A DNA stretch of 64,000 nucleotides, taken from assembly GCF_054482595.1 (NCBI RefSeq), contig NZ_CM137008.1. One strand, 5' to 3'. The notes beneath the pieces are model-generated. The model did no database searches. It saw only the letters and a program-made list of their open reading frames with translations, and had not been told where the DNA came from. Within the stretch, counting starts at the first letter, position 1; every line of letters starts with the position of its first letter. Shown here piece by piece: positions 1 to 55,371 of the stretch. A program made the translations under genes and the position numbers.

Positions 1-177
1 ATTACGCAAAATCACCGTGATATTGTTCATGCCGGGAATGGCTTCAACCACATTCGGCATATCCACCAGACGCTGCGCCAGTCGCCAGATCCGTTTCTGG
101 CTAGCCAGCGTCACCGGCGGTTCCAGTTCCAGCACTACCGCCGTTTCACCTATCAGATAACAACGCGCTCGTTGCAC
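1..177 (-). CDS. pxpB: 5-oxoprolinase subunit B (PxpB/YbgJ), N-terminal 59 codons; gene runs off the window start
   Basis: Minus-strand translation from GTG at 175-177 gives (M)[58 protein letters not shown], recognised as the PxpB N-terminus; sits directly downstream of ybgI as in K-12. Not in the ORF track because it is truncated by the window edge. Confidence 0.75.
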
Positions 178-4942: not shown

Positions 4943-5200
4943 TCAATTATATTTTATAATTTGTTGTATTGCTGACTTTATATTGCCAATGACATCCTCA
5001 TCATTAAATTCATTTAATATATTTTTTAGAATAGGATGTAGTTTAATATCACCTAAAATACCTGCCAAAATAATAACTTCATCAAAAATTATGTTTTTTT
5101 GCAGTTCATAAATTATAGCAGTTATAACACGATTATCTTTTCTTTCTGCCAGTCCGCTTATAGCTTCAATTCTGGCACAATCATTCTTATCTGTCAGCAT
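4943..5200 (-). pseudogene. HEAT/ARM-like repeat ORF fragment abutting the ISAs1 element, possible remnant of an Rhs immunity gene
   Basis: 85-aa AT-rich ORF with HEAT-like periodicity (ARIEAISGLAERKDNRVITAIIYELQ...); starts 12 nt below the transposase stop in the same frame; too short to be a complete HEAT-repeat protein. Confidence 0.3.
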
Positions 5201-6490
5201 TCCAGGGCAAGATTACGAAAGCCCGCTCCCCGCAAGGACTGACGCCAGATAGTTTCTGTCCATGGCTGCTTTTCGCATCTTACGTCTTAACCCTGCCTTG
5301 AATACCTTATCATTCGTCAAAATATTAATAGCAATGTGCCGTATCCCTGAAAATAATTCTGCTGCATTTCCTCTTCTTATTTTGCAGTCGTCTTCATTCA
5401 TTACCACGTCCAGACGCCAGTGCAGCTTATTCTCCACGTGCCAGTGGTTTCGGATTGCTGTGGCGAACTTCTCTGCGGTTAAATCAGCAGAACTGATATA
5501 ATATCTGACCGTCATTTCTGGCTCTTTCTTTTGTTCTGCTATTATGGACCGAAAGGAGACTGCCACGCATAATTTCTTCAGCCCTTTCCATTCAAACGTG
5601 AAATCAATAAGTTCATCAGGGACATCGCAAACATTATGAAGACGGATCTCTTCTCTGCCGTGACTCTTTTCACTCATTGCGTAACTGTCATGCTCTGGAT
5701 TATTTAATTCTTTCAGTGGAAATTTTTCCTCAAAGGCTTTATTAAGCCGCCCCTGATTTCCTTTTACAGCGAATAAATAATCACCGCCCTGTTTTTGTAT
5801 CTTCTCTGCGATATCTTTCTGGCAACCCATCGCATCAGTTGTGATAATTTTTCCTTTAATATCCAGCATGTTAAGAAGTTCAGGGATAGCTGTAATCTCA
5901 TTAGATTTCTCATCCGTCTTGATCTGTCCGATGACCAGACTGTGCATTGTTGAGAACGCACTAATGACATGAATCGCTCCCCTGCGGCGACTCTTGTCAT
6001 AAGAGTGCCGGAGCGTTTTTCCATCAATTGCAATGACGTCTTTATCATCTGAAGAATGGCAGTCACGCATCCAGTTAATAAAGCACTCGTGAAATTTTGC
6101 AGGACTGATACAGGATACAACTCTGGCAATGGTATCGTGAACAGGAATACCATTTTCAAAATCACCATATTGCTTCAAAAAATCGAGATGTGTTTCCCCA
6201 AAATCCTCTATATCTTCCCAGCCTTCTGCACCAGAAATAACGGCACAAATAGTCAACAGTAGAATATCCGATAATTTATGCTCCACTTTCCAGGCTTGTC
6301 TGTAATCAGGGATAATAGAAATATGTTCCATCAATTTTTTAAGTTCCATTTTGTTCTCCTTAATTATGTAAGGAGTATTTGATCATGTATAAGCAATAAA
6401 AAACAGCTTCAGGTAATGAGGAATATCTCAATTTTTAAACATAAAATGCGAATTATTTAGTACAAAAAGTGAACTTCTGATGATCTTTCC
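5201..6490 (-). mobile_element. ISAs1-family insertion sequence (E. coli H-repeat/ISEc1-like); boundaries approximate
   Basis: Contains an intact 378-aa ISAs1 transposase ORF; the size expected for an H-repeat is about 1.3 kb. Terminal inverted repeats could not be fixed by eye; only a short shared gcggggag core was seen near both ends. Confidence 0.5.
5213..6349 (-). CDS. ISAs1-family transposase (H repeat-associated protein), full length
   Basis: 378-aa ORF recognised as the H-repeat-associated (YhhI/YdcC-type) transposase family; no frameshift or internal stop. Confidence 0.9.
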
Positions 6491-6987
6491 CTGTGATTGC
6501 TTCCCGTTTCCCGATACGGCGGCGCGGGGAGTCATAAAGGTAAGAAATTTCCAGCAGTACAGCGTCCTATTGTTCACGGCGGTAATGCACCAACCAGTAT
6601 TGGCTATCGTAGTGATAACCGTGTAACCTGCCGCCGCATCGCGTATCTAATGTTCATTCTTTTCCATAAACCGTCCGTACACATTGTGATAGTAAAAATA
6701 CAATACATCTTCGCTGATGCGGTTATTCTGCTGCATGTGGGGAGCGCCGAATACTGCTCCCGGTATGGCCAGTAATTACTATTTAGTACGACGTTAGGGG
6801 GAGTCACTTAATCTCACAGATACTTCAAGTAACAGATGAAAATCGCTCCTGAAATGAAAAAAGAAATTTTTTTGAATGTGTTCCTGTCAAATCAAGTGGT
6901 TTTTTCGTCGATATGTAGAGTCATATTGTACACAAAATTGTTACGAAACACACCTTGGTAAAATATTTGAATCGACTGTACAGTGGA

Positions 6988-7290
6988 TTATTTTGTGTGT
7001 ATTACATTCAACACTTGCCCATCTTTTTTCGCTATTAGTATTGTAAAATTTCCTCCTAAAGTCTTCGGTTGTTTTCCCTCGATTTTCCAACAATTATTGT
7101 CATCTGTAATACTATATGGTTTCTGAAATTCTGCTTTTTCTTTCCCGTATACATATTTAATGTAAACATATGATAATTCCAAAGCCATTTCACGACTATT
7201 TACTAAAATTTCCACTGGATTTTCTTTTCCAAATACTTGTTATGATATTGTAAACAATATCATAATAAGTAATATTAGTGAGTTTCTCAT
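6988..7290 (-). pseudogene. Small secreted-protein gene interrupted by an in-frame TAA at codon 17 (orphan immunity-like remnant?)
   Basis: ATG at 7290-7288 opens MRNSLILLIMILFTIS, then TAA at 7242-7240, then the same frame continues QVFGKENPVEILVNSREMALEL... to the stop at 6988. The ORF-track 75-aa ORF (6988..7215) is the in-frame downstream part, starting at a GTG. Confidence 0.4.
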
Positions 7291-7458
7291 GTTCTACACC
7301 TATCGAATCTCAAAAGCTGTGGGTAAAACATTACATTCAGAATATATGATATTCTTACCATCGGAATCCATTTTTCCAAATCGACCTTCTGGTGTACCTG
7401 GATATCCATTAAGAACATGTTTTTCCGAATGGTTAATTTATTCTCTCAGGAAGATGTT

Positions 7459-8028
7459 TTATTTTTCTTCACTACGAAGCAGTTCATGCTGTATTTTTGT
7501 TAAACATTCGTAAGACTCATCTTTGTTCGGGAGATGTGCTGTCATTCGAGCATAAGTTGGCTTCTCATCTTTAAAATATTTAACCATGATTGAATTATCA
7601 AGGACTGCCAACAACTGAGCTGGATCACTGCTCTTTTTTTGATAGATACCCGCTCTTATATAACTTCTAAACCGATCGCCGAGAAACGCCGTTTTTTCTG
7701 CTGTATTTATCAACTCCTGCAACGTTCCTTTGATGGCATGATTTTCATTAAGGCGTAGTGACCCGACACGAATTAAGAGTCTCGCCCCGCTTGATGTGAA
7801 TTTATTATTTTTACATGTACCCAGTTCTGTTTGCCAATAATACTCACCGATGTCCTCATTCTGATACCATCTCCACATGGCTTTATTATTTAAGACAGGA
7901 AACGCGGAAAAAATAGTACCCTTAGCGAAAATAGTAAAACAATCATGATCTTTAGCTTGTATTTCGCAATCAGCTATAACACCAAAATTAACAAATATCA
8001 TCAGCAAAAAGAACAAAACTCTTTTCAT
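7459..8028 (-). CDS. Putative Rhs immunity protein with N-terminal signal peptide (YbfC-like by length and position)
   Basis: 189-aa ORF whose start overlaps the rhs stop by 4 nt; N-terminus [19 protein letters not shown] resembles a Sec signal peptide; low GC like the rhs 3' end. Confidence 0.6.
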
Positions 8029-8549
8029 TTTCTTATTCCTCTCGATGTTCTCTGTTTCATTTTAGCTAAAATTTCACCCAAATCATCTATCCCTGCTGTT
8101 GCTGGCCCATCGGGTTTATTAATGTCTGGGAATAAATAGGGTTCTGCACAAGTATATCCTGGTGGTAATTGAGTTGTTGGCCAATTTGTCTGTGGCAGGT
8201 AATCACTTGCTGTCTTTGTATCCATCCCTGGATACTGGGGATCATCCTGTGGCGTACAAGTCAGATTTGGTTTTACCCACTTCCTGCAATACAGTGTGTA
8301 GTCGTAAGGGCTTAATGCTCTGAAGAATGTTTTGAAAACATTAGGCGCACTACTGGCCTGGTCAATAGGATATGGCAGTCTTAATTGTTTCGCTATGTCT
8401 GGCAATTTACTTGGATCGGGCGTAGGCGGTTTGTTGGGTCTCGCTCCATATCCGCCATTATTTAAGTGTCCATATTTTGATGCCAGTCCCATTGAATCTA
8501 TATACTGAACCGGATTCAACGGATACTGATAAAAATTCCATCCCCCCTT
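8025..8549 (-). other. Rhs C-terminal toxin domain (174 aa after DPIGL), family not recognised
   Basis: Sharp drop in GC below 8550; residues [43 protein letters not shown]...[17 protein letters not shown]...[11 protein letters not shown]...; three Cys and Pro-rich stretches. Confidence 0.6.
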
Positions 8550-11500
8550 CAGTCCAATCGGATCCTGAGTGATATACCTCCCCTGCAGCGGGTCATAATA
8601 GCGGTGGCGGTTGTAATACAGGCCGGACTCCTCATCATACTGCTGACCCGGCAGGCGGATGAGCTGCTGCAGCTGGTGCGGGTTCTCTTCATTCAGCTGG
8701 TTACCCCATTCATCGTATTCTGCGTACCACGCTGTTGTCCCTTCCGTGCTGATAAGCGCCAGCGGCAGGCCGCGATGGTCGCAGTGGTACAGGTGGATTT
8801 TTCGCGCCGGCGTGTACACCGGGTCCATCTGGTTTTGCATCTGCTTCACCGTCAGGCCGCACGATGCCAGCCAGCGGCGGCTTTCCTCACTCACCCGGTC
8901 AGCCAGGATTTCACTTTCCAGCCGGTCGAGCATCTGCACCAGCACCGGCGGGAACACCACACTGCCACCGTCTTCACCGCCGGACTGCTGAAGGGCATCC
9001 GCCAGGCTGCGGCGCTGCGTTCTGGCCAGTTCACCGGTGGCAGTTTCAACTCTGATGAGTGGTGTGAAGCTCCCCGGCTGATAAATCGTCTGGATGCGGG
9101 TTCTGTCGTTCTGTATCGTGGTCAGGCGGTCGCCATCCCAGCCGTACCAGGTCACTTGCGGTTTCCGTGACAGCGACATCCAGCCCGTCAGGTCCCGTTC
9201 ACGTCGCCATACCCGTTTTGCCACCCTGCGGCCCAGCGGGTCGTAAAGATAGCGGCTTTCGACCAGCGGCTCTGCATATTGTGTCCGCGTGTAGTGCACC
9301 AGCCGGTGCTGACTGTCGTAATGGTACCGGTGGGTGCGCTCATCATCCGTGCGGATAACCCCTTCCGGGATGAGGTCGGTTTTCTCTGTCAGTCTGCCGT
9401 GACGGTCATACCGGTAAAGATAGTGCGCGTCACGGGCGATACGGTTATCCGGCCACATGCTGAGGGTGCTGTCCGGGTGCAGCTCCGGGTCGGGCAGGCG
9501 GTTACCTGCCGGGTCCGTGGCATACGGGATGCGGATATCAAGGTTCGCTGCCGTGGTGTGAACGCCGGTCAGCCTGCCGGAGTCGCTGTAGCTGTAACTC
9601 CGGGTATGGCGCGGGCTGCTGATGCGGATGAGTTCGCCGTTGTCGTTCCAGGTGTAATCGCGGTCAGACTGCAGGCTGTTCAGGTGCTGGCTCTGTAACT
9701 GCCCGGCAGGGGTATAAGCGGTGGTGAGTTCATAATGGCCGAAGCTGCGCAGCGTTTCCCGGTGCAGGCGGTCGCGGGTGAAATCCACCAGCGGTGTGTC
9801 GCCGAGCTTCATGCCTGACAGCCAGCCGCTGCCGTAGGTCAGCCATTCCACGGCGGGCAGGCTGTCCGGTATACAGCGGTTCGCCAGCCCCTGCGCGTTG
9901 TAAGCGTGTCTGGTCTCATGCTGCCAGAGCAGTGCTTCCGTCTGCGGGTGATGCACCGTCTGACGCTCACCGGTCAGGCGGCCTTTCTCATCATACCTGT
10001 AATGCACCGCTACCCGGTGCCCTTCGCTGATATGGCTGATGTCTGTCAGCCAGCCACGTTCGTCATACCGCCACCGCTCTGCGGTTTCACCCTTCACGGT
10101 GCGGTGCGTGAGGCGGTCTGCTTCGTCATAGTGCCAGTGGGTGACCAGACCCTCATCCTCGCTGCGGATAAGTTTGCCGGTCAGGTCGTGGTGATAATGC
10201 TGTGTGCGGCCGTCAAAGCCGGTTTCCTGTATCAGCCGGTCGAGTACATCGTAACGGAAGGTGGTGTGGCTGCCGTTTTCACTGGTCAGGCGGATGACCC
10301 GTCCGGCAGCATCGTATTCCATACTGCGCGTCAGACCGCCCTGCGTGGTACGGATGGCCTTTCCCCACGCATCGTACTGTGTCCCGTTTCTGCTGCCGTC
10401 CGGAGCAATGACGGCGGTCAGGTCACCGGCGGCGTTGTATTCATACCGCATTTCATGGCCCTGCATGTCTTTCACGGCAATTAACCGTCCACGGCTGTCG
10501 TATGCGCGGTACTGACTCAGCCCTTCCTCGCGGTGCACCGCCGTCATCTGCCCGAAACGGTCATGGTCATAACGGGTTACATAACCGGAACAGTCGGTGA
10601 AGCTCAGCAACTGGCCGTAACGGCTCCACGTCATGGTTTTCCGGCTGCCGGTGGCATCGTCCGTTGCGCAGGGTAAGTCACTGTGTGGATTATCATAACG
10701 GTAGCGGGTGATATCGCCGTCAGGGGCGGTTTCCTGAATCAGACGGCCGGATTCATCATATTCCCGGCGCATTTCCAGCCCGTCAGGCCCGGTGGCTGAC
10801 GTTAACTGGCTGTGGTGGTTATAGTAAAATGCCGATGCCCTGCCATCCGGTGTGGTGATGCGCGTGATGAGTCCCGTCACCACATCCGGGCTGTATTCTG
10901 TTGTCCGGCCTGCGGCATCCGTCTGTGCCTTAAGCCTGCCCACCGCATCAAACTGACTCTGCGTGACGCTGCCGTCCGCGTGTTCCTTTTTCACCACCCG
11001 CTTCAGCCCGCCTTCGCCCTGCGTGTGCAGCACTTCACGGCGGTCCAGGCTGTCGGTGATGGTGATGCGGTTTTGCTCATAACAGTAGGTGTAGCTTAAG
11101 CCCGCCGGGTTAAGCTGCTCTGTCACCCGCCCGTCGCTGTCGTAACGGTAACGGATTTCCGGTCGGCCCGTGTGACGGTGCGCCACCATCCGGCCCCGGT
11201 ATTTATCATCGTAAGTAAAGCTGCGCACCTGTGTATTGCTGCGGTCATACACCGCCGCCAGTTCGCCGCGTGGCGTCCAGCCATAGCGCACCAGCGGCGC
11301 GGCTGGCAGGTTGTCCGGGTATTCCGGGTCGTGCGTCAGCCACACGGCAGACAGACGGATGCCGTTGTCCCGGCCATATTCGGTGTAACCCGGCAGGGTA
11401 TCAGGAAAAGCGGACGGTTCCGTCCCGCCGGAAGAGGCCTGCTGCCGGGCTTCTTCTGCCCGCTGCGCCTGCGTGGTCAGTACCAGCCGGAAGTGACGCC

Positions 11501-12224
11501 CGGCACCATCCGTCACGCCGGTGATTTCGCCGCTGAATTCACCGGCGGCTTCGCGGTGGAACGTCTGTGTGCGCCCGAAGCGGTCCACCAGCCCGGTCAG
11601 TACCCGGTACGGCGGCAGCGGCGCAGGCAGCACCTCATCCGCTTCCGGCACCCGCTCACACCAGCCGAGCAGCCACCACGGCCCCTGCGGACTGTTTGTC
11701 GCCAGATAACGATGCGGACTTAAGCGGAGTTCTTCCGGCAGCGCCTGCCAGAGTGCGGCCAGCCGGTGACCTTCATCCAGTTTCGCCACGCCGCCGCGCA
11801 CCAGCCACAGTGACTCGCTGCGGCTGTAACCGTCCTCACCGGGAAACAGGTGCTCAAAATACAGGCTTCTGCCGCCGTTATCACTGAGTATCAGTGTGTT
11901 ATCGCGCAGCTGTAAGCGGATATCCGCAGGCATTTTCCAGCCGGGGCCGAGGCTCCCCACCGGCGCGGGCGTTTTTGTCCGGTAACTGCTGTAGGTGCGG
12001 GAGAGAATGAACGGCAGCGGGGCGGGCAGGGCGATGTCGGTTTCACCGGGAAGGACCTTTGCACCGAGCAGCGGATTGACCGGATGGCCGGACGTCACCC
12101 CGCCGGGGCACACCGAACAGGCCACGCCGGTGGGGGCACCAATACGTACCCCGGCTGAACCCTGGACAATGCTACCGCCATACTGCGTCATGTCGCCCTG
12201 ACGCGCCGCCGGTTTTCCGCTCAT
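8025..12224 (-). CDS. rhsC: Rhs family protein (RhsC by position next to ybfA-kdp) with variable C-terminal toxin domain
   Basis: 1399-aa ORF; N-terminal region with CSVCPGG motif, long YD-repeat core, and DPIGL core-end motif encoded at 8550-8564, followed by a 174-aa C-terminal domain. Confidence 0.9.
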
Positions 12225-12417
12225 CTGCTCATCCTTGTATTATCGGGTTATTTGTCCGCTGACAGGCAAAACCCTACAGATTTATAAGAAAGCCTTAAGT
12301 GAGATATCCGTCAGATAGAAACAATTAGGAAAATATTTATATATATTTCATGAATATATGTTTCGATTGGTATAACGGTGTCTAAATATTCCTCTGAACA
12401 TCTTCCTGATACAAAAA

Positions 12418-12447
12418 ACCGCCAGCGTTTCCGCTGGCGGTTTTCAA
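12418..12447 (-). terminator. Rho-independent terminator downstream of ybfA
   Basis: Minus strand reads ccgccagcg gaaa cgctggcgg followed by a T6 run. Confidence 0.7.
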
Positions 12448-12466
12448 TGTATTCAGAACTCAGCAA

Positions 12467-12673
12467 TCAATAAAAATCACCGGTTGCCTTTTCGGCCTGA
12501 TCCATCCACACCGGTTTATCGCTGGTTTTCGACCAGACGCGATGCAGGTAGCTGTAAAAGCGGGCGCGGTCTTTCCAGAAAAGCATGAAAGGCAGCGCCA
12601 GAACGCCCGCTGCAACCGCATAAGTACGGCGTAAAAAGATAAGCCATGCTGGATATTCTCTGTAGAGTTCCAT
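12467..12673 (-). CDS. ybfA: Small membrane protein YbfA (DUF2517)
   Basis: 68-aa ORF recognised as YbfA; divergent from the kdp operon. Confidence 0.85.
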
Positions 12674-12881
12674 ACTTTTCTCCCCCTTTTGTATCTACCC
12701 GGTGAATGGCACCGGAAAATGAATTTGTTTATCTGATGAAAATAGTACCGCCTTTTGTGTAATTTTACTACTCATCCGACCACTTATTTTTGCTTATTGA
12801 TGGTTTATTTACATTCACCCTGTAATTAAGTTACACAAAAGTTAAATTAATACTAAACATTAGTTAAATCATGGCTTTTGC

Positions 12882-12908
12882 CATTTTTATACTTTTTTTA
12901 CACCCCGT
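12882..12908 (+). promoter_or_regulatory. KdpE operator / kdpFABC promoter region
   Basis: catttttatactttttttacaccccg, the T-rich KdpE-binding sequence, about 80 nt upstream of kdpF. Confidence 0.6.
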
Positions 12909-12984
12909 CCGCAGATTTTTGCGAAATCTTTGCAGCCAGAATTCTACCCTTCCGGTATCACTTTTAGGCCACTGGAGGTGCACT

Positions 12985-13074
12985 GTGAGTGCAGGCGTGA
13001 TAACCGGCGTATTGCTGGTGTTTTTATTACTGGGTTATCTGGTTTATGCCCTGATCAATGCGGAGGCGTTCTGA
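12985..13074 (+). CDS. kdpF: K+-transporting ATPase subunit F
   Basis: GTG start after ggagg; encodes (M)[28 protein letters not shown] (29 aa); its stop overlaps the kdpA ATG. Confidence 0.85.
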
Positions 13075-14747
13075 TGGCTGCGCAAGGGTTCTTACTGATC
13101 GCCACGTTTTTACTGGTGTTAATGGTGCTGGCGCGTCCTTTAGGCAGCGGGCTGGCGCGGCTGATTAATGACATTCCTCTTCCAGGTACAGCGGGCGTTG
13201 AACGCGTACTCTTTAGCGCGCTTGGCGTCTCTGACCGTGAGATGAACTGGAAGCAGTATCTCTCAGCCATTCTTGGCCTGAATATGCTGGGGCTGGCGGT
13301 GCTGTTTTTTATGTTGCTCGGTCAGAACTATCTGCCGCTTAATCCGCAACAACTGCCGGGGCTGTCGTGGGATCTGGCGCTGAATACCGCCGTCAGCTTT
13401 GTCACCAATACCAACTGGCAAGCTTACAGCGGTGAAACCACGTTGAGCTATTTCAGCCAGATGGCGGGTTTAACGGTGCAAAACTTTCTTTCTGCCGCCA
13501 GCGGGATTGCGGTGATTTTTGCCCTCATCCGCGCGTTTACCCGCCAGAGCATGAGCACACTCGGGAATGCCTGGGTCGATCTGCTACGCATCACGTTATG
13601 GGTGCTAGTCCCTGTGGCGTTGTTGATCGCACTGTTTTTTATTCAACAAGGTGCGCTGCAAAACTTTCTGCCCTATCAGGCAGTGAATACCGTTGAAGGA
13701 GCGCAACAGCTGTTACCCATGGGGCCAGTAGCTTCTCAGGAAGCGATCAAGATGCTCGGTACTAACGGCGGTGGCTTCTTTAATGCCAACTCGTCGCATC
13801 CGTTTGAAAACCCAACCGCACTGACCAACTTCGTGCAGATGCTGGCGATCTTCTTGATCCCAACAGCGCTGTGCTTTGCCTTTGGTGAAGTGACGGGCGA
13901 TCGCCGCCAGGGGCGCATGTTGCTGTGGGCGATGTCAGTGATTTTTGTCATCTGCGTAGGCGTGGTGATGTGGGCAGAAGTTCAGGGTAATCCTCATCTG
14001 CTGGCGCTCGGCGCAGACAGCAGCATCAATATGGAAGGTAAAGAGAGCCGTTTCGGCGTGCTGGTCAGTAGCCTGTTTGCGGTCGTGACTACGGCGGCGT
14101 CCTGTGGCGCGGTGATTGCGATGCATGATTCGTTTACCGCTCTCGGTGGCATGGTGCCGATGTGGCTGATGCAAATTGGTGAAGTGGTATTCGGCGGTGT
14201 CGGTTCTGGTCTTTACGGCATGATGCTGTTTGTCCTGCTGGCGGTGTTTATTGCCGGGCTGATGATTGGTCGTACACCGGAATATCTGGGTAAAAAAATC
14301 GACGTACGTGAGATGAAACTGACTGCACTGGCGATTCTGGTCACCCCGACGCTGGTGCTGATGGGCGCGGCGCTGGCAATGATGACCGACGCCGGACGTA
14401 GCGCCATGCTCAACCCTGGCCCGCATGGTTTTAGCGAAGTGCTGTACGCCGTGTCATCCGCCGCTAACAACAACGGCAGCGCCTTTGCCGGATTAAGCGC
14501 CAACTCTCCGTTCTGGAACTGTTTACTGGCGTTCTGCATGTTTGTCGGTCGCTTCGGGGTGATTATCCCGGTGATGGCAATTGCCGGTTCGCTGGTGAGT
14601 AAAAAGAGCCAACCCGCCAGCTCCGGCACGCTGCCAACGCACGGCCCGCTGTTTGTTGGCCTGTTAATCGGCACCGTGTTGCTGGTTGGCGCACTGACCT
14701 TTATCCCTGCCCTGGCGCTTGGTCCGGTGGCGGAATATCTCTCCTGA
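13074..14747 (+). CDS. kdpA: K+-transporting ATPase subunit A
   Basis: 557-aa protein starting [12 protein letters not shown]; the ORF-track 605-aa version is an upstream in-frame extension. Confidence 0.93.
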
Positions 14748-14769
14748 TGATATTGAGTGAGCACTGAAT

Positions 14770-16818
14770 ATGAGTCGTAAACAACTGGCGCTATTCGAAC
14801 CAACACTTGTCGTTCAGGCGCTGAAAGAAGCGGTGAAAAAATTAAACCCGCAGGCGCAATGGCGCAATCCGGTGATGTTTATCGTCTGGATCGGCAGTCT
14901 GCTGACCACCTGTATTAGCATCGCGATGGCAAGCGGTGCGATGCCCGGCAATGCGCTGTTTAGCGCGGCCATTAGCGGTTGGCTGTGGATCACCGTACTG
15001 TTCGCTAATTTCGCCGAGGCGCTGGCAGAAGGCCGCAGTAAAGCGCAGGCCAACAGTCTGAAAGGGGTGAAAAAAACTGCTTTTGCTCGCAAGCTGCGCG
15101 AACCGAAATATGGCGCTGTGGCAGACAAAGTTCCTGCCGATCAACTGCGTAAAGGTGACATCGTGCTGGTAGAAGCTGGCGATATTATCCCCTGCGATGG
15201 TGAAGTCATTGAAGGCGGCGCATCGGTCGATGAAAGCGCCATCACCGGGGAATCGGCACCGGTGATCCGTGAATCCGGTGGCGATTTTGCCTCCGTCACT
15301 GGCGGCACGCGTATTCTTTCTGACTGGCTGGTGATTGAGTGTAGCGTTAACCCCGGCGAGACATTTCTGGATCGGATGATCGCGATGGTGGAAGGCGCAC
15401 AGCGACGTAAAACGCCGAACGAGATTGCCCTGACCATCCTGCTGATTGCCCTGACTATCGTCTTTTTACTGGCAACCGCCACGCTGTGGCCGTTTTCTGC
15501 GTGGGGCGGTAATGCAGTCAGTGTAACGGTACTGGTGGCGCTGCTGGTCTGTCTGATCCCAACCACTATTGGCGGCCTGTTGTCAGCGATCGGCGTCGCC
15601 GGGATGAGTCGGATGCTGGGCGCGAATGTGATTGCCACCAGCGGACGTGCAGTTGAAGCGGCAGGTGACGTTGACGTTCTGCTGCTGGATAAAACCGGCA
15701 CCATCACACTCGGTAACCGTCAGGCATCGGAGTTTATCCCTGCGCAGGGCGTGGATGAAAAAACGCTGGCTGACGCCGCACAACTGGCTTCGCTGGCTGA
15801 TGAAACGCCGGAAGGCCGCAGTATTGTGATCCTCACCAAGCAGCGTTTTAACCTGCGCGAGCGCGATGTGCAGTCGCTCCATGCCACCTTTGTACCGTTT
15901 ACTGCGCAAAGCCGGATGAGCGGGATCAACATCGACAACCGCATGATCCGTAAAGGTTCTGTCGATGCCATTCGCCGCCATGTTGAGGCTAACGGTGGTC
16001 ACTTCCCTGCCGATGTTGATCAAAAAGTCGATCAGGTTGCGCGTCAGGGGGCCACGCCGCTGGTGGTGGTGGAAGGTTCTCGTGTGCTGGGCGTTATTGC
16101 GCTGAAAGATATCGTTAAAGGCGGCATTAAAGAACGCTTCGCGCAACTGCGCCAAATGGGCATTAAAACGGTGATGATTACCGGCGATAACCGTCTGACT
16201 GCCGCCGCGATAGCTGCAGAAGCGGGCGTCGATGATTTCCTCGCCGAAGCGACACCGGAGGCCAAGCTGGCATTGATTCGTCAGTATCAGGCGGAAGGTC
16301 GTTTGGTAGCGATGACCGGCGACGGCACCAACGATGCTCCGGCGCTGGCGCAAGCAGATGTCGCGGTGGCGATGAACTCCGGTACTCAGGCGGCGAAAGA
16401 AGCGGGCAATATGGTGGATCTCGACTCTAACCCGACCAAGTTGATCGAGGTGGTGCACATTGGCAAACAGATGCTGATGACCCGTGGCTCGCTGACCACC
16501 TTCAGCATTGCCAACGATGTGGCGAAATACTTCGCCATTATTCCGGCGGCGTTCGCGGCAACGTATCCGCAGTTAAATGCGCTGAACATCATGCGCCTGC
16601 ATTCGCCCGACTCCGCCATTCTCTGTGCGGTCATTTTCAACGCCTTGATTATCGTCTTTTTGATTCCCCTGGCGTTAAAAGGTGTGAGTTATAAACCGCT
16701 TACCGCTTCTGCCATGTTGCGCCGTAAGTTATGGATTTACGGTCTGGGTGGGCTGCTGGTGCCGTTTATTGGTATCAAAATCATTGATTTACTGCTGACC
16801 GTTTGCGGTCTGGTGTGA
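14770..16818 (+). CDS. kdpB: K+-transporting P-type ATPase subunit B
   Basis: 682 aa with P-type ATPase motifs (DKTGTIT, TGDN, GDGTND). Confidence 0.95.
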
Positions 16819-16826
16819 GGTTTACC

Positions 16827-17399
16827 ATGCGTGGATTACGTCCGGCGTTATCGACATTTATCTTTCTGTTATTGATTACTGGCGGCGTTTACCCGCTGCT
16901 GACCACCGCGCTGGGGCAATGGTGGTTTCCCTGGCAGGCCAACGGTTCGTTGATCCGTGAAGGTGATACGGTGCGCGGTTCGGCATTAATCGGGCAGAAT
17001 TTTACCGACAACGGCTATTTTCAGGGTCGCCCGTCGGCAACGGCAGAAATGCCCTATAATCCACAGGCTTCTGGCGGGAGCAATCTGGCAGTCAGTAACC
17101 CGGAGCTGGATAAACAGATAGCCGCACGCGTTGCCGCATTACGGGCCGCTAACCCGGATGCCAGCACGAGCGTTCCGGTTGAACTGGTGACGGCATCGGC
17201 AAGCGGGCTGGACAATAACATCACCCCACAAGCGGCGGCCTGGCAGATCCCACGCGTAGCGAAAGCGCGTAATCTCAGCGTTGAACAGCTCACGCAACTG
17301 ATCGCAAAATACAGCCAACAACCACTGGTGAAATATATCGGCCAGCCGGTCGTCAACATTGTCGAACTCAATCTGGCGCTGGATAAACTTGATGAATAA
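16827..17399 (+). CDS. kdpC: K+-transporting ATPase subunit C
   Basis: 190 aa from the ATG at 16827 ([16 protein letters not shown]...); the ORF-track start at 16803 is an extension overlapping kdpB. Confidence 0.9.
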
Positions 17400-20076
17400 C
17401 GAACCCTTACGTCCCGACCCCGATCGTCTGCTGGAACAAACTGCCGCGCCGCATCGGGGGAAGCTGAAAGTTTTCTTCGGTGCCTGTGCAGGCGTCGGGA
17501 AGACCTGGGCGATGCTGGCGGAAGCCCAGCGACTGCGGGCGCAAGGGCTGGATATTGTGGTTGGCGTGGTAGAAACCCACGGGCGGAAAGATACCGCCGC
17601 AATGCTGGAAGGGCTGGCTGTTCTGCCGCCAAAACGCCTGGCGTACCGTGGGCGGCACATCAGCGAGTTTGATCTCGATGCTGCCCTCGCCCGCCGTCCG
17701 GCGCTGATCTTAATGGACGAACTGGCGCACAGTAATGCGCCAGGTTCTCGTCATCCTAAACGCTGGCAGGATATCGAAGAACTGCTGGAAGCTGGCATTG
17801 ATGTTTTCACAACCGTCAACGTTCAGCATCTGGAAAGTCTGAATGATGTGGTCAGCGGCGTCACCGGAATTCAGGTACGGGAAACCGTGCCCGATCCTTT
17901 TTTCGATGCCGCCGACGACGTGGTGCTGGTGGACTTGCCCCCGGACGATCTGCGCCAGCGGCTGAAAGAAGGCAAAGTCTATATTGCCGGGCAGGCGGAG
18001 CGCGCCATTGAACATTTTTTCCGCAAAGGCAATCTGATCGCCCTGCGCGAACTGGCACTGCGCCGTACTGCCGATCGCGTTGATGAGCAAATGCGCGCCT
18101 GGCGGGGGCATCCTGGCGAAGAGAAAGTCTGGCACACGCGCGACGCGATCCTTTTATGCATCGGCCATAACACCGGCAGTGAGAAACTGGTCCGCGCGGC
18201 GGCGCGGCTGGCGGCGCGGCTGGGTAGCGTCTGGCACGCGGTGTATGTTGAAACCCCTGCCCTGCATCGCTTACCGGAGAAAAAACGTCGGGCAATTCTC
18301 AGCGCCTTACGTCTGGCGCAGGAGCTGGGCGCGGAGACGGCAACACTTTCTGATCCAGCGGAAGAGAAAGCGGTAGTGCGTTATGCCCGTGAACATAATC
18401 TCGGCAAGATTATTCTCGGTCGCCCAGCCTCGCGCCGCTGGTGGCGTCGGGAAACGTTTGCTGACCGACTGGCGCGCATCGCCCCCGATCTCGATCAGGT
18501 GCTGGTCGCGCTTGATGAACCACCCGCCCGCACGATTAACAACGCGCCGGATAGCCGCTCTTTTAAAGACAAGTGGCGGGTACAGATTCAGGGATGCGTG
18601 GTTGCCGCCGCGTTATGCGCCGTTATCACCTTAATTGCCATGCAGTGGCTGATGGCGTTTGATGCCGCCAACCTGGTGATGCTGTATCTACTTGGCGTGG
18701 TGGTGGTGGCGCTATTTTATGGACGCTGGCCTTCGGTGGTTGCTACCGTCATTAATGTGGTGAGTTTCGATCTCTTTTTTATCGCCCCACGCGGCACGCT
18801 CGCCGTCTCTGATGTGCAATATCTGCTGACCTTCGCGGTGATGTTAACCGTCGGGCTGGTGATCGGGAACCTTACTGCGGGTGTGCGTTATCAGGCACGG
18901 GTAGCCCGTTACCGCGAGCAACGCACACGGCACTTATATGAAATGTCGAAAGCTCTGGCGGTGGGCCGCAGTCCGCAGGACATCGCCGCCACCAGCGAAC
19001 AATTTATTGCCTCCACGTTTCATGCCCGCAGTCAGGTGTTGTTGCCCGATGACAACGGTAAATTGCAGCCGTTAACACATCCGCAAGGAATGACGCCGTG
19101 GGACGATGCCATCGCGCAGTGGAGTTTTGATAAAGGCCTGCCTGCGGGTGCGGGCACCGACACGTTACCCGGCGTGCCGTACCAGATTTTGCCGTTAAAA
19201 AGCGGTGAGAAAACCTACGGGTTGGTGGTGGTGGAACCGGGGAATCTGCGCCAGTTGATGATCCCGGAACAGCAGCGCCTGCTGGAGACGTTTACGCTGT
19301 TAGTCGCCAATGCGCTTGAGCGGCTGACGCTGACCGCCAGCGAAGAACAGGCGCGGATGGCAAGCGAACGTGAACAGATCCGCAACGCCCTGCTGGCGGC
19401 GCTTTCGCATGATTTACGCACTCCGCTCACGGTGTTGTTCGGTCAGGCAGAAATCTTAACGCTCGATCTGGCAAGCGAAGGATCACCCCACGCCCGCCAG
19501 GCCAGCGAGATTCGTCAGCATGTGCTGAACACTACCCGACTGGTGAATAATCTACTGGATATGGCGCGAATTCAGTCCGGCGGCTTTAATTTGAAGAAAG
19601 AGTGGTTAACGCTGGAAGAAGTAGTCGGCAGCGCGCTGCAAATGCTGGAACCGGGTTTATCGTCGCCCATCAATCTTTCTCTGCCAGAACCGCTGACCTT
19701 AATCCACGTTGACGGGCCACTCTTTGAACGGGTGCTGATTAATTTGCTGGAGAACGCAGTGAAATATGCGGGTGTGCAGGCCGAAATTGGTATCGATGCC
19801 CACGTTGAGGGCGAAAATCTACAACTGGATGTCTGGGATAACGGCCCCGGACTTCCGCAAGGCCAGGAGCAGTCGATTTTTGATAAGTTTGCTCGTGGGA
19901 ATAAAGAGTCGGCAGTCCCGGGTGTAGGGCTTGGGCTGGCAATTTGTCGGGCGATTGTGGATGTACACGGCGGCACCATTACCGCGTTCAACCGACCGGA
20001 AGGTGGTGCCTGTTTTCGTGTTACACTTCCCCAGCAAACCGCTCCTGAACTTGAAGAATTTCATGAGGATATGTGA
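17392..20076 (+). CDS. kdpD: Sensor histidine kinase KdpD
   Basis: 894 aa from [16 protein letters not shown]; ATG at 17392 overlaps the kdpC stop; histidine kinase H-box (LSHDLRTPL) and ATPase domain present. Confidence 0.93.
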
Positions 20077-20750
20077 CAAACGTTCTGATTGTTGAAGATG
20101 AACAGGCTATTCGTCGCTTTCTGCGCACGGCGCTGGAGGGCGACGGGATGCGCGTCTATGAGGCCGAAACGCTGCAACGCGGCTTGCTGGAGGCGGCTAC
20201 CCGTAAGCCAGATTTGATTATTCTCGATCTTGGCCTGCCCGATGGTGATGGGATTGAGTTTATCCGCGACCTGCGCCAGTGGAGCGCGGTGCCGGTGATT
20301 GTGCTTTCCGCACGCAGCGAAGAGAGCGACAAAATCGCCGCGCTGGATGCCGGAGCGGATGATTATCTAAGTAAGCCGTTTGGCATTGGCGAATTGCAGG
20401 CCCGTCTGCGCGTCGCTTTACGCCGCCACTCCGCCACCGCCGCGCCCGATCCGCTGGTGAAATTCTCCGATGTTACCGTCGATTTAGCCGCCCGCGTGAT
20501 TCACCGGGGTGAGGAAGAGGTGCATCTCACGCCGATTGAGTTTCGCCTGCTGGCAGTGCTGCTCAACAACGCCGGAAAAGTGCTCACCCAGCGCCAACTC
20601 CTTAACCAGGTGTGGGGGCCAAACGCGGTCGAACACAGTCATTATTTGCGTATTTATATGGGACATCTGCGACAAAAACTGGAGCAAGACCCGGCCCGGC
20701 CTCGCCATTTTATTACTGAAACTGGGATTGGTTATCGGTTTATGCTTTAG
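20073..20750 (+). CDS. kdpE: Response regulator KdpE (OmpR family)
   Basis: 225 aa; GTG start overlapping the kdpD stop (GTGA); receiver domain plus winged-helix C-terminus. Confidence 0.93.
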   Translation: MTNVLIVEDEQAIRRFLRTALEGDGMRVYEAETLQRGLLEAATRKPDLIILDLGLPDGDGIEFIRDLRQWSAVPVIVLSARSEESDKIAALDAGADDYLSKPFGIGELQARLRVALRRHSATAAPDPLVKFSDVTVDLAARVIHRGEEEVHLTPIEFRLLAVLLNNAGKVLTQRQLLNQVWGPNAVEHSHYLRIYMGHLRQKLEQDPARPRHFITETGIGYRFML

Positions 20751-20760
20751 GGGCTGAATT

Positions 20761-20858
<98 letters not shown>

Positions 20859-20868
20859 AGTCATAAGT

Positions 20869-20901
20869 AAAAAAGGGCGATCTTGCGACCGCCCTTTTTT
20901 T
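20869..20901. terminator. Bidirectional rho-independent terminator (kdpE / pgm)
   Basis: aaaaaa-gggcg-atcttgcgac-cgccc-ttttttt: A-run, stem-loop, T-run. Confidence 0.7.
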
Positions 20902-20912
20902 ATTTAATGTGT

Positions 20913-22553
20913 TTACGCGTTTTTCAGAACTTCGCTAACAATCTCAACCGCTTCTTTCTCAATCTGCTTGCGATGTTCTTCACCGAGGAAGCTTTCGCAG
21001 TAGATCTTATATGCGTCTTCCGTGCCTGACGGACGCGCGGCGAACCAGCCGTTGTCAGTCATCACTTTCAGACCGCCAATAGAAGCACCGTTGCCCGGAG
21101 CAGCAGTCAGGCGCGCGGTGATCGGGTCACCAGCCAGGGTGCTGGCGCTCACCATTTCCGGAGACAGCTTAGACAGCGCCGCTTTTTGTGCGGAAGTCGC
21201 AGCTGCCTGCAAACGGTTGTAGCTCGGCGCACCAAAGCGTTTTGCCAGTTCGTTGTAGTGTTCCTGCGGGTTCTTACCGGTGACAGCGGTGATTTCCGCC
21301 GCCAGCAGACACATGATGATGCCGTCTTTGTCGGTGGACCACGGCGTGCCGTCGAAACGCAGGAAGGAAGCCCCTGCGCTCTCTTCGCCGCCAAAGCCGA
21401 AGCTGCCGTCGAACAGACCATCAACAAACCATTTGAAACCTACCGGGACTTCTACCAGTTTACGGCCCAAGTCGTTGACCACACGGTCGATCATCGCAGA
21501 AGAAACCAGCGTTTTACCAACGGCAACATCTTTGCCCCACTGCGGACGATGCTGGAACAGGTAGTTGATTGCCACCGCCAGGTAGTGGTTCGGATTCATC
21601 AAACCTGCCGGAGTGACGATACCGTGACGGTCATAATCCGGGTCGTTAGCAAACGCCAGATCGAACTTATCACGCAGTGCCAGCAGGCCCGCCATCGCAC
21701 ACTCGGAGGAGCAGTCCATACGGATCGCGCCGTCTTTATCAAGGTGCATAAAGCGGAAGGTTTGATCGACCTGATCGTTAACGATGGTCAGGTTGAGGTT
21801 GTAATACTCGCCAATACGCTTCCAGTATTCGATACCGGAACCGCCCAGCGGATCAACGCCAAGCGTCAGGCCCGCTTTCTGAATCGCCGCCATATCAACG
21901 ATATCGGCCAGCCCTTCCACGAACGGCTGCACCAGATCCTGCTCTTTCACATGACCGGATGCCATCGCTTCGTCGAGGGAGATACGCTTCACGCCTTTCA
22001 GGCCATCGGCCAGCAGTGCGTTGGCACGATCTTCCACCACTTTAGTGACGTTGGTATCAGCCGGGCCACCATTTGGCGGATTGTACTTGATACCACCATC
22101 TTCCGGCGGGTTATGGGACGGTGTAATCACGATACCGTCTGCCAGCGGGCCACCTTTTTTATTGTGAACCAGGATGGCATTGGAAACGGCAGGCGTCGGG
22201 GTGAAGCCATTGTTTTCCTGCACAATAACATCTACGCCGTTCGCTGCCAGCACTTCCAGAACGGAAATAAATGCAGGTTCGGACAGGGCGTGAGTATCTT
22301 TACCCACATAGCAAGGGCCAGTGATGCCGTTTTTCGCACGTTCTTCAGCAATTGCCTGAGCGATCGCCAGAATGTGCGGCTCGTTAAAGCTGTGGCGCGC
22401 TGCACTGCCACGGTGACCGGAAGTACCGAATTTCACCGCGTGCTCCGCATTCCCTGCTTCTGGTTTCAGTACATAATATTGCGCCGTCAGTTGGGCGACG
22501 TTAATCAAATCACTCTGTTGTGCAGGTTGGCCTGCACGATTGTGGATTGCCAT
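20913..22553 (-). CDS. pgm: Phosphoglucomutase
   Basis: 546 aa from [12 protein letters not shown] (ATG at 22553); contains the active-site TSGHRG motif; the ORF-track start at 22604 is an extension. Confidence 0.93.
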
Positions 22554-25381: not shown

Positions 25382-25400
25382 TATAATGATACGCATTATC
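25382..25400 (+). promoter_or_regulatory. Fur box in the fur/uof promoter (autoregulation)
   Basis: tATAATGATAcgCATTATC matches the GATAATGATAATCATTATC consensus at 15 of 19 positions and overlaps a TATAAT -10. Confidence 0.6.
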
Positions 25401-25472
25401 TCAAGAGCAAATTCTGTCACTTCTTCTAATGAAGTGAACCGCTTAGTAACAGGACAGATTCCGCATGACTGA
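25386..25472 (+). CDS. uof: Upstream-of-fur leader peptide Uof (28 aa)
   Basis: ATG at 25386 encodes MIRIISRANSVTSSNEVNRLVTGQIPHD; its stop (25470-25472) overlaps the fur start. Confidence 0.7.
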   Translation: MIRIISRANSVTSSNEVNRLVTGQIPHD

Positions 25473-25911
25473 TAACAATACCGCCCTAAAGAAAGCTGGC
25501 CTGAAAGTAACGCTTCCACGTTTAAAAATCCTGGAAGTTCTTCAGGAGCCGGACAACCATCACGTCAGTGCGGAAGATTTATACAAACGTCTGATCGATA
25601 TGGGTGAAGAAATTGGTCTGGCTACGGTATATCGCGTACTGAACCAGTTTGACGACGCTGGTATCGTCACCCGCCACAATTTTGAAGGCGGTAAATCCGT
25701 ATTTGAACTGACACAGCAACATCACCACGATCACCTGATCTGCCTCGACTGCGGCAAGGTTATCGAATTTAGTGATGATTCCATCGAAGCGCGTCAGCGT
25801 GAAATTGCCGCAAAACATGGCATTCGCCTGACTAACCACAGTCTCTATCTTTACGGTCACTGTGCCGAAGGCGATTGCCGCGAAGATGAGCACGCGCACG
25901 AAGGCAAATAA
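25465..25911 (+). CDS. fur: Ferric uptake regulator Fur
   Basis: 148 aa, MTDNNTALKKAGLKVTLPRLKILEVLQ...; His-rich C-terminus. Confidence 0.95.
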   Translation: MTDNNTALKKAGLKVTLPRLKILEVLQEPDNHHVSAEDLYKRLIDMGEEIGLATVYRVLNQFDDAGIVTRHNFEGGKSVFELTQQHHHDHLICLDCGKVIEFSDDSIEARQREIAAKHGIRLTNHSLYLYGHCAEGDCREDEHAHEGK

Positions 25912-42597: not shown

Positions 42598-43638
42598 TTG
42601 AACATAGACACTCGCGAAATCACCCTGGAGCCAGCAGACAACGCGCGTCTGTTGAGCCTGTGCGGCCCGTTTGATGACAACATCAAGCAGCTCGAACGCC
42701 GTCTCGGCATCGAGATCAATCGCCGCGATAACCACTTTAAACTGACCGGCCGTCCGATTTGCGTCACCGCTGCGGCAGACATTCTGCGTAGCCTGTATGT
42801 CGATACAGCCCCGATGCGCGGTCAGATTCAGGATATCGAACCGGAACAGATCCACCTTGCGATTAAAGAAGCGCGAGTACTGGAGCAAAGTGCGGAGAGC
42901 GTGCCGGAGTACGGCAAAGCGGTCAATATCAAAACCAAACGCGGCGTAATTAAGCCGCGCACGCCAAACCAGGCGCAGTACATCGCCAATATTCTCGACC
43001 ATGACATTACCTTCGGCGTTGGCCCGGCGGGTACGGGTAAAACCTACCTGGCAGTGGCTGCGGCAGTTGATGCCCTGGAGCGTCAGGAGATTCGCCGTAT
43101 TCTGCTGACTCGTCCGGCGGTCGAAGCCGGTGAGAAACTGGGCTTCCTGCCTGGCGATTTAAGCCAGAAAGTAGACCCGTATCTGCGCCCGCTGTACGAC
43201 GCGCTGTTTGAAATGCTGGGCTTTGAGAAAGTTGAGAAACTGATTGAGCGCAACGTTATTGAAGTCGCGCCGCTGGCCTATATGCGTGGTCGTACGCTGA
43301 ACGACGCGTTTATCATTCTCGATGAGAGCCAGAACACCACCATCGAACAGATGAAGATGTTCCTGACCCGTATCGGTTTTAACTCAAAAGCGGTTATCAC
43401 CGGCGACGTCACACAGATCGACCTGCCGCGTAATACTAAATCAGGCTTACGTCACGCCATCGAAGTGCTGGCCGATGTCGAAGAGATCAGCTTTAACTTC
43501 TTCCACAGCGAAGACGTGGTTCGTCACCCTGTGGTGGCGCGTATCGTTAACGCCTATGAAGCCTGGGAAGAAGCCGAACAAAAACGAAAAGCGGCGCTGG
43601 CGGCAGAACGCAAGCGCGAAGAACAGGAACAAAAATGA
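42598..43638 (+). CDS. ybeZ: PhoH-like ATPase YbeZ
   Basis: 346 aa from a TTG at 42598 preceded by aagaggaa; Walker A GPAGTGKT. The ORF-track ATG at 42559 would give 359 aa; the start is ambiguous. Confidence 0.85.
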
Positions 43639-46633: not shown

Positions 46634-47029
46634 TCCCTTCTTATCGTGCCGGAATACATCCCATATTTCGGCACGCTCACCGGATGCGGCATCAGTGCAT
46701 TATCCGGATAACAATATTCTCCTATCCAACTTTGGCACATCTATTGCTTTGTTATACAAGGCAAAGCTTTAACCAGCATCAGTACAACCCGGTTGCACCG
46801 CAGCAATCCACCGGTAGCACCAAAAGAGTGCATTTTAAGAATTTTGCTTCGGAATGGTGCGGTGCACCTCGCAAAAACAAACAATAAAACATCAATATCT
46901 TTACATTTAACCAAACTAAATGTTACCTAACAGTCACAACACTGCACAATAAAGTTGCAGACGATAACAACACAAACACTCACAACGAGTATCCATGCGT
47001 TCTTAACGCAGAAGATAAAGGAGTTGGAT

Positions 47030-55270: not shown

Positions 55271-55371
55271 TTGTTAATAATCCCTTAAGTGCATTAACTG
55301 ACTACTTTTTTATTATTGATGAGTATAAACTTGACGCTTTCAAAATAAAAAGAAAATCGAAGCATTCACAC

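Follow-up and report, generated by a model that had tools for sequence, protein, structure and literature searches.

Start codons and gene junctions of the kdpFABCDE potassium-pump operon, and the longer open reading frames around them

The DNA studied here, hereafter the window, was a stretch of 64,000 nucleotides of E. coli chromosome that differed from E. coli XH990 at 15 bases; the PGAP annotation of XH990 gives all six kdp genes. Positions 12985-20750 of the window contain kdpF, kdpA, kdpB, kdpC, kdpD and kdpE, in that order and on one strand (plus), each gene matching its own family according to PGAP, NCBIfam and comparison with K-12. The NCBIfam equivalog matches for KdpF, KdpA, KdpC and KdpD all exceeded the curated cut-offs. 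This locus is the ordinary, long-known potassium-pump operon of E. coli, whose products are the K+-pumping P-type ATPase KdpFABC and the two-component regulator KdpD/KdpE. The start codon is GTG in kdpF and kdpE and ATG in kdpA, kdpB, kdpC and kdpD. The junction spacings are -1 (F/A), +22 (A/B), +8 (B/C), -8 (C/D) and -4 nt (D/E), negative values denoting overlaps.

The operon of E. coli K-12 MG1655 (b4513, b0698-b0694) shares with the window all six genes, their order, start codons and junction spacings, as well as the gene lengths (90, 1674, 2049, 573, 2685 and 678 nt from kdpF to kdpE). When the starts were compared with the curated K-12 starts, as the initial annotation had proposed, all six were identical in position and codon. 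The kdpF gene was 100% identical to b4513, and the nucleotide sequences of the other five genes were 95.6-97.6% identical to those of K-12, each product differing by 2-8 amino acids. The two loci differed in the kdpE stop codon, which is TGA in the window and TAG in K-12, and in the downstream neighborhood: pgm directly abuts kdpE in the window, and the ybfP..speFL block that lies between them in K-12 is absent.

The initial annotation had claimed that four of the six kdp starts are internal to longer ORFs and would be misplaced by longest-ORF calling. This was found to be the case for kdpF (longest ORF from 12871), kdpA (12930), kdpC (16803) and kdpD (17359), and not for kdpB and kdpE. It could be supposed that at least one of the longer ORFs is real, yielding an extended KdpF of 67 aa, KdpA of 605 aa, KdpC of 198 aa or KdpD of 905 aa as the true product or as an alternative to it, since the extensions are open and have usable start codons in the window and in most Escherichia genomes. 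The evidence on this point was considered gene by gene, together with a comparison of 13 related genomes from six genera, namely E. albertii, E. whittamii, three more Escherichia (~94-95% identical to the window), Salmonella, three Atlantibacter, two Citrobacter, Enterobacter and Klebsiella sp.

Upstream of kdpF, a KdpE binding site is located at 12886-12902 (plus strand), with the half-sites TTTATA (12886-12891) and TTTACA (12897-12902) 5 bp apart. These half-sites match the published ones, for which sequences and positions (-67 to -62 and -56 to -51) have been reported (PMC3264566; bioRxiv 10.1101/256826), and the TTTATA-N5-TTTACA arrangement was kept in 10 of 10 aligned genomes. Because the half-sites sit at these positions, the kdpFABC transcription start would lie at approximately 12953, and the ATG at 12871 and the TTG codons at 12919 and 12930 would therefore not be present on the kdpFABC mRNA. 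Thus, three of the four decoy starts of kdpF and kdpA (two per gene) would be upstream of the transcription start, which argues against the longer ORFs. A weak separate kdpDE promoter within kdpC was reported in older literature. A sigma-70 scan detected no promoter on the plus strand and thus missed the known KdpE-dependent one as well as any kdpDE promoter inside the operon; this negative outcome carries little information, because the kdp promoter is a poor match to the consensus. A search of 12400-21100 against Rfam found no RNA family, and terminator-like sites between the kdp genes were at chance level (9 found versus 9.6 expected). The presence of one kdp mRNA would be consistent with the single promoter and its KdpE site before kdpF, combined with the lack of above-chance terminators.

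The kdpF gene (12985-13074, plus strand) was annotated by PGAP as 29 codons starting with GTG, and the KdpF chain in the solved KdpFABC structures in the PDB also has 29 aa. Its Shine-Dalgarno sequence, GGAGG (12974-12978), is 6 nt 5' of the GTG and forms a duplex with the 16S 3' end at -10.6 kcal/mol; the GGAGGTG at kdpF was invariant in 10 aligned genomes and four added loci. The extension of the ORF (12871-12984, plus strand; ATG 12871, TTG 12919) falls in the promoter region and the 5' leader and is non-coding. It was interrupted by 1-nt indels in Salmonella and Atlantibacter, and its ATG at 12871 reads GTG in one Escherichia genome and AAG in Atlantibacter sp. RC6. The KdpF profile alignment (NCBIfam) began at residue 40 of the 67-aa longest ORF. 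The minimum-energy fold placed the kdpF GTG in the 3-nt loop of a hairpin (12979-12993). This hairpin was rejected as a regulatory element: the fold was no better than those of shuffled sequences (z = -0.81), and the stem was broken in Salmonella, Atlantibacter and Enterobacter. Separately, automated gene calling overlooked this short gene entirely in one Klebsiella assembly.

The kdpF/kdpA junction is TGATG (13072-13076, plus strand), in which the kdpF TGA (13072-13074) and the kdpA ATG (13074-13076) have base 13074 in common. The GTG start of kdpF and the overlap of its stop with the kdpA ATG had both been proposed in the initial annotation, and direct reading, PGAP and the K-12 annotation agreed on them. 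The -1 overlap was kept in 15 of 15 genomes, as TGATG in all except one, which has TAATG. The kdpA gene (13074-14747, plus strand; 557 aa) starts with ATG, and its Shine-Dalgarno sequence, GGAGG at 13062-13066, lies within kdpF (-9.5 kcal/mol). To use the extended start, TTG 12930, the whole of kdpF would have to be read through in another frame. Position 1 of the TIGR00680 profile aligned to residue 49 of the 605-aa longest ORF, and no in-frame start was present upstream of kdpA in Salmonella, Atlantibacter, both Citrobacter species and Enterobacter.

The kdpB gene (14770-16818, plus strand; 682 aa) has an ATG start 22 nt past the kdpA stop, a spacing looser than at the other kdp junctions, and no alternative start upstream in the window. 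The kdpC gene (16827-17399, plus strand; 190 aa) starts with ATG 8 nt past the kdpB stop, and its Shine-Dalgarno sequence, GAGG (16817-16820), overlaps the kdpB TGA (-6.3 kcal/mol). The longest kdpC ORF, from TTG 16803, encodes 198 aa, of which residue 10 was aligned with position 1 of TIGR00681 and residue 9 with position 2 of NF001454. Indels of 2-4 nt 5' of the kdpC ATG break this extension in Atlantibacter.

At the kdpC/kdpD junction, 8 nt (ATGAATAA, 17392-17399, plus strand) belong to both genes. The initial annotation had described the kdpD ATG as overlapping the kdpC stop; this is inaccurate, since the ATG (17392-17394) and the TAA (17397-17399) share no base and are separated by two. 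The kdpD gene (17392-20076, plus strand) encodes 894 aa from ATG, with the longest ORF beginning at TTG 17359. Its Shine-Dalgarno match is weak (-3.1 kcal/mol) and not much better than those of the decoys, and a TTG at 17389, directly 5' of the ATG, shares this weak context, which is in favor of a longer product. However, position 1 of NF007793 aligned to residue 12 of the 905-aa longest ORF, and upstream indels of 16 and 10 nt broke the extension in Salmonella and Atlantibacter.

The kdpD/kdpE junction is GTGA (20073-20076, plus strand), where the GTG start of kdpE overlaps the TGA stop of kdpD. Direct reading, PGAP and K-12 all bore out this overlap, which had been pointed out in the initial annotation. 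The kdpE gene (20073-20750, plus strand; 225 aa) is not within a longer ORF, and it has the Shine-Dalgarno sequence GAGG at 20065-20068 (-6.1 kcal/mol).

Across the 13 related genomes, all six kdp start codons aligned in every genome. In Salmonella, Atlantibacter, Citrobacter and Enterobacter, by contrast, the extensions were either missing or in a different frame: upstream indels of 1, 2, 4, 10 and 16 nt broke them among the related genomes, and the three Atlantibacter genomes had no in-frame start upstream of any of the six genes. In the NCBIfam scan of the longest ORFs, the KdpF, KdpA, KdpC and KdpD profiles began no more than one residue past the annotated start (aligned there with profile position 1 or 2), and the extensions received no family-profile match. 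Shine-Dalgarno matches were much better at the annotated kdpF, kdpA, kdpC and kdpE starts than at the decoys, which had values of +1.0 to -3.1 kcal/mol and no Shine-Dalgarno match. A search of the accessible literature on the E. coli kdp genes found no direct N-terminal protein or ribosome-profiling data and nothing usable on experimental N-termini, start codons or translational coupling. The K-12 layout, conservation, NCBIfam profiles, Shine-Dalgarno matches and the KdpE site agreed that the shorter curated starts are right and that longest-ORF calling is misled here, as had been claimed. The annotated kdp starts are thus well supported as the real ones by sequence comparison, and an extended product of any of the four genes is highly improbable. 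The longer ORFs are due to ATG, GTG and TTG codons that happen to be in frame, either within the preceding gene or in the promoter and leader.

The initial annotation had extended the same problem to ybeZ (TTG), lptE (GTG) and pxpB (GTG). These three genes do have the non-ATG starts found in K-12; a longer ORF is present only for ybeZ. The ybeZ gene (42598-43638, plus strand) overlaps ybeY by 4 nt and starts with TTG after AAGAGGA, with an in-frame ATG at 42559, 13 codons upstream. Its TTG start, the same as in K-12 NP_415193.2, is suggested by the annotation and by the good fit of its Shine-Dalgarno sequence. When the long YbeZ ORF was searched against the PDB and NCBIfam, matches were confined to the C-terminal PhoH ATPase domain and do not discriminate between TTG and ATG, and a literature search on the TTG start found nothing relevant. 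No in-frame start, and hence no longer ORF, exists upstream of lptE (62593-63174, plus strand; GTG after GGGAGGA; stop overlapping the holA ATG by 1 nt) or of the 5' part of pxpB (1-177, minus strand; GTG at 175-177).

Because the kdp cistrons are packed at spacings of -1 to +22 nt, each downstream ribosome-binding site lies within or just past the upstream gene. The F/A, C/D and D/E overlaps and the B/C spacing, with the Shine-Dalgarno sequence over the stop, resemble those of coupled pairs. TGATG junctions of trpE-trpD and trpB-trpA, demonstrated experimentally in trp, and ATGA-type overlaps in many operons are classical cases of translational coupling. The kdpF/kdpA junction has the same TGATG geometry, the kdpD/kdpE junction has the same 4-nt start/stop overlap, although as GTGA instead of ATGA, and the Shine-Dalgarno sequence lies within the upstream gene, as in the trp-type junctions. 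The 8-nt spacing of kdpC/kdpD also occurs in the window at uof-fur (25386-25472 and 25465-25911), where the upstream ORF overlaps the downstream ATG by 8 nt. Uof has been reported to gate fur translation; it is annotated as a short leader peptide, whereas KdpC is a structural subunit. A ribosome ending an upstream kdp gene may re-initiate at the nearby start; alternatively, the terminating ribosome may melt nearby structure, which would allow another ribosome to load downstream. Coupling of either kind would link the output of neighboring subunits (F to A, B to C) and of the sensor with the regulator (D to E).

It could be argued instead that compaction produced the overlaps and GTG starts as neutral side effects that leave expression unaffected, each cistron being initiated independently at its own Shine-Dalgarno sequence, for which the recognizable sites at kdpF, kdpA, kdpC and kdpE speak. 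The C/D spacing was free to vary, being -8 in Escherichia, -4 in Salmonella, -1 in C. koseri, 0 in Enterobacter, +1 in Klebsiella sp., +2 in Atlantibacter and +10 in C. freundii; because of this drift between genera, a tight C/D overlap is not required. The D/E overlap of -4 was kept in 14 of 15 genomes; because kdpE lies 92 nt from kdpD in the exception, Klebsiella sp. R445, where the GTG start is retained, this overlap is not obligatory either. Moreover, the kdp genes were not significantly enriched relative to the rest of the window (one-sided Fisher tests) in overlapping junctions (3/5 versus 9/33, p = 0.17), starts within a longer ORF (4/6 versus 13/49 other genes, p = 0.066) or non-ATG starts (2/6 versus 4/49, p = 0.12); their pattern is real yet typical of the window. 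On the other hand, the F/A and D/E overlaps were kept across six genera despite diverging neighboring leader and spacer sequences, the Escherichia kdpD, nearly devoid of a Shine-Dalgarno match and with its ATG 5 nt before the kdpC stop, has a geometry that favors re-initiation, and experiments have shown coupling at junctions of the same TGATG and ATGA types, in trp and in other operons. Overall, purely neutral compaction appears rather unlikely, and the kdp layout is standard operon compaction, probably accompanied by translational coupling. The gene identities, starts, junction geometry and their conservation were shown directly. Coupling would be the most likely consequence of the packing, although the searchable literature yielded no experiment on coupling at the kdp junctions.

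The GTG starts of kdpF and kdpE may have been selected to restrain initiation and so tune the amounts of the small subunit and the regulator, in which case GTG would not be interchangeable with ATG. All 15 genomes compared, which span six genera, retain both GTG codons. That of kdpE persisted in Klebsiella sp. despite the uncoupling of kdpE from kdpD, and also in Atlantibacter and Enterobacter, although a G-to-A mutation would leave the amino acid of the last kdpD codon (CTG or TTG) unchanged. However, the sample comprised six closely related Enterobacteriaceae genera, over which, by a rough, uncomputed estimate, it would not be unlikely for one transition site to stay unchanged under neutral evolution, and GTG is common anyway, starting approximately 1/7 of E. 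coli genes. Selection of this kind is possible but doubtful.

A further reading, which we regard as improbable, concerns kdpD. Loss of approximately 16 nt from the end of kdpC, specific to Escherichia, would have moved the kdpC stop 5 nt beyond the kdpD ATG and left kdpD nearly without a Shine-Dalgarno match, so that KdpD in Escherichia would be made mainly by ribosomes that end kdpC and re-initiate backwards; the design of the start sites, including the invariant kdpF and kdpE GTG codons, would then tune the stoichiometry of the cluster. If this reading were true, production of the sensor kinase would be tied directly to translation of the pump, giving a translational layer of positive feedback.

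Taken together, it is very probable that the locus is a canonical kdpFABCDE operon with real curated starts, accidental longer ORFs and, most likely, translational coupling. The junctions, the GTG and TTG starts and the probable coupling are textbook biology that is already known, and they open no new question. The significance is confined to a caution for annotation, as longest-ORF calling misplaces starts both in kdp and elsewhere in the window, being wrong for 17 of the 55 starts in total.

The flagged interval, 12985-20750, ran precisely from the kdpF start to the kdpE end; the region is the kdpFABCDE operon itself, and all of the features listed in the initial annotation were already present in the curated K-12 annotation. 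Positions 12500-21500 matched 5,425 of 5,426 complete E. coli genomes by megablast, and no more than 15 positions distinguished the whole 64-kb window from E. coli XH990 (NZ_CP019359.1). The PGAP annotation of XH990 was moved onto the window positions, which gave kdpF at 12985-13074, kdpA at 13074-14747, kdpB at 14770-16818, kdpC at 16827-17399, kdpD at 17392-20076 and kdpE at 20073-20750. Curated K-12 MG1655, against which a check had been proposed, agreed with the window in the lengths, start codons and spacings of all six genes. kdpF was 100% identical to its K-12 counterpart, whereas the other five genes were 95.6-97.6% identical, values that look low for core genes of E. coli. This kdp allele was uncommon, since identity of at least 99% over the 9 kb (12500-21500) was found in only 14 of 5,463 matching records. 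The segment may be recombinant or lineage-specific.

The junctions were read directly. The kdpF GTG start lay 6 nt downstream of GGAGG, and, as had been claimed, the kdpF stop overlapped the kdpA ATG, with TGA and ATG sharing one base in TGATG. A gap of 22 nt separated kdpA from kdpB and one of 8 nt separated kdpB from kdpC, whose GAGG overlapped the kdpB stop. The stated overlap between the kdpD ATG and the kdpC stop was not literally correct: the ATG is at 17392-17394 and the TAA at 17397-17399, and it is the genes that overlap, by 8 nt (ATGAATAA). The claimed overlap of the kdpE GTG with the kdpD stop was present as GTGA. Naive ORF calling indeed misplaced four of the six starts, the frames of kdpF, kdpA, kdpC and kdpD beginning at 12871, 12930, 16803 and 17359, respectively. 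Elsewhere in the window, the start codons reported for ybeZ (TTG), lptE (GTG) and pxpB (GTG) were right and the same as in K-12, but the longer-ORF problem ascribed to all three applied only to ybeZ, whose longer ORF begins at an ATG 13 codons upstream of the TTG, and not to lptE or pxpB. A fifth GTG start, that of the NTF2-fold immunity gene on the minus strand at 7215, had been missed. The initial annotation was partly confirmed, with two small inaccuracies, and its reading that the curated shorter starts are right and the longest-ORF calls misleading was supported: alignment, further genera, profiles, ribosome-binding sites and the transcript boundary, five independent lines of evidence, agreed that the annotated kdp starts are right.

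A single scan of genome contigs with KdpC returned nine loci, from E. albertii, E. whittamii, three additional Escherichia genomes that share only about 94-95% identity with the window, Salmonella enterica subsp. diarizonae and three Atlantibacter genomes. When the operon was aligned with MAFFT, each of the six start codons lined up in 10 of 10 sequences, and indels of 1, 2, 4, 10 and 16 nt, which would destroy the extended reading frames, were found directly upstream of the starts. Because the three Atlantibacter genomes contained no upstream in-frame ATG, GTG or TTG for any of the six genes, the annotated start there is the first start of the ORF. Four loci added by protein search and contig look-ups (Citrobacter koseri, C. 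freundii, Enterobacter roggenkampii and Klebsiella sp. R445) had the same starts as the window. GTG at kdpF and kdpE and the F/A overlap of -1 were kept in all 15 genomes compared, and the D/E GTGA in 14, the exception being Klebsiella sp. R445, which had a 92-nt spacer and retained the GTG. The C/D spacing was -8 in Escherichia, -4 in Salmonella, -1 in C. koseri, 0 in Enterobacter, +1 in Klebsiella sp., +2 in Atlantibacter and +10 in C. freundii.

In the Logan assembly of Klebsiella sp. R445, the kdpD-kdpE spacer was located at 8266-8357, the kdpD C-terminus differed, and the kdpE GTG was followed by A (GTGA) despite the spacer; kdpF was overlooked by the automated gene call, with GTG...TGATG present at about 1151-1244. 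In E. albertii NBRC 107761, KdpB was 663 rather than 682 aa with unaltered junction spacing, implying that 19 codons were deleted in frame.

When longest-ORF translations of KdpF, KdpA, KdpC and KdpD were scanned against NCBIfam, no profile matched the upstream extensions. Profile position 2 fell on residue 40 of the 67-residue KdpF ORF, and position 1 on residue 49 of 605 for KdpA and residue 12 of 905 for KdpD; for KdpC (198 residues), TIGR00681 position 1 fell on residue 10 and NF001454 position 2 on residue 9. Duplex energies with the 16S rRNA 3' end were -10.6, -9.5, -4.7, -6.3, -3.1 and -6.1 kcal/mol for the kdpF, kdpA, kdpB, kdpC, kdpD and kdpE starts, respectively, and +1.0 to -3.1 kcal/mol for the upstream in-frame decoys. 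The deposited KdpF chain had 29 residues in 14 KdpFABC structures and 27 in 11 others, which does not independently prove the N-terminus.

KdpE half-sites were read at 12886-12891 (TTTATA) and 12897-12902 (TTTACA). Since the published half-site positions are -67..-62 and -56..-51 (bioRxiv 10.1101/256826), +1 is placed near 12953; the KdpE footprint extends from -72 to -50 (PMC3264566). With transcription starting there, ATG 12871, TTG 12919 and TTG 12930 are outside the kdpFABC mRNA. GTG 12978, the sole kdpA-frame decoy left, was inside the kdpF Shine-Dalgarno. The kdpF GTG was predicted to form the 3-nt loop of a hairpin with a perfect 6-bp stem at 12979-12993 (UGCACU-GUG-AGUGCA); this fold was not better than shuffles (z = -0.81), and its stem was disrupted in Salmonella, Atlantibacter and Enterobacter.

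The 55 annotated window genes comprised 49 ATG, 5 GTG and 1 TTG starts; 17 were internal to a longer ORF, and 12 of 38 same-strand junctions overlapped, the overlap being 4 nt at six of them, 1 nt at four and 8 nt at two. By one-sided Fisher tests, kdp compared with the rest of the window gave 4/6 versus 13/49 for genes internal to a longer ORF (p = 0.066), 2/6 versus 4/49 for non-ATG starts (p = 0.12) and 3/5 versus 9/33 for overlapping junctions (p = 0.17). The kdp pattern is real, yet it is the normal look of E. coli operons. The fur leader peptide gene uof overlaps fur by 8 nt (25465-25472), a geometry like that of kdpC/kdpD.

Several neighbouring regions were also noted. kdpE and pgm were directly convergent, with 162 nt between them (20751-20912). 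In this spacer a REP-like palindromic unit lies at about 20760-20795, and a GC-rich hairpin flanked on both sides by T-runs lies at about 20872-20900. At this spot K-12 carries a 5.8-kb block (ybfP, ybfG, ybfI, potE, speF, speFL) that the window lacks; the contiguous junction occurred in only 353 of 5,426 complete E. coli genomes. pgm also directly followed kdpE in C. freundii and Klebsiella sp. R445, and speFL-speF did so instead in C. koseri and Enterobacter. The RHS region adjoining ybfA (4943-12224; RHS core protein, ybfC, NTF2-fold immunity gene, ISEc1 transposase and a small hypothetical gene) differed from K-12 rhsC, where the order is rhsC-ybfB-ybfO-ybfC-ybfQ-ybfL-ybfD. The lnt-gltI interval (46634-47029) lacked the IS5 (IS5D/insH3) found in K-12. 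The paralogous pairs ybeU-djlC and ybeR-djlB (53115-58067) each overlapped by 4 nt, and the 20-nt stretches preceding djlC and djlB were almost identical (cttaaggatgtgagcgacct and cttaaggatatgagcgacct), which suggests a duplicated two-gene module.

The kdp cluster would form a compact polycistronic unit with downstream ribosome-binding sites within or just past the preceding gene, and translational coupling is likely, either through re-initiation after termination or through unmasking of the start site. The geometry and conservation of the kdp junctions were observed directly, and coupling would follow by analogy with junctions such as trpE/D and trpB/A; the searchable literature yielded no test of it in E. 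coli kdp. Coupling appears most plausible at F/A (TGATG) and D/E (GTGA), both conserved across six genera. For the Escherichia C/D pair, in which kdpD is almost devoid of a Shine-Dalgarno match and has its ATG 5 nt ahead of the kdpC stop, coupling is plausible as well. That tight overlap is not obligatory is shown by the varying distance between kdpC and kdpD and by the spacer between kdpD and kdpE in Klebsiella. It is conceivable, though rather unlikely, that kdpD in Escherichia came to rely on kdpC termination for its translation and that selection for dosage accounts for the GTG starts.
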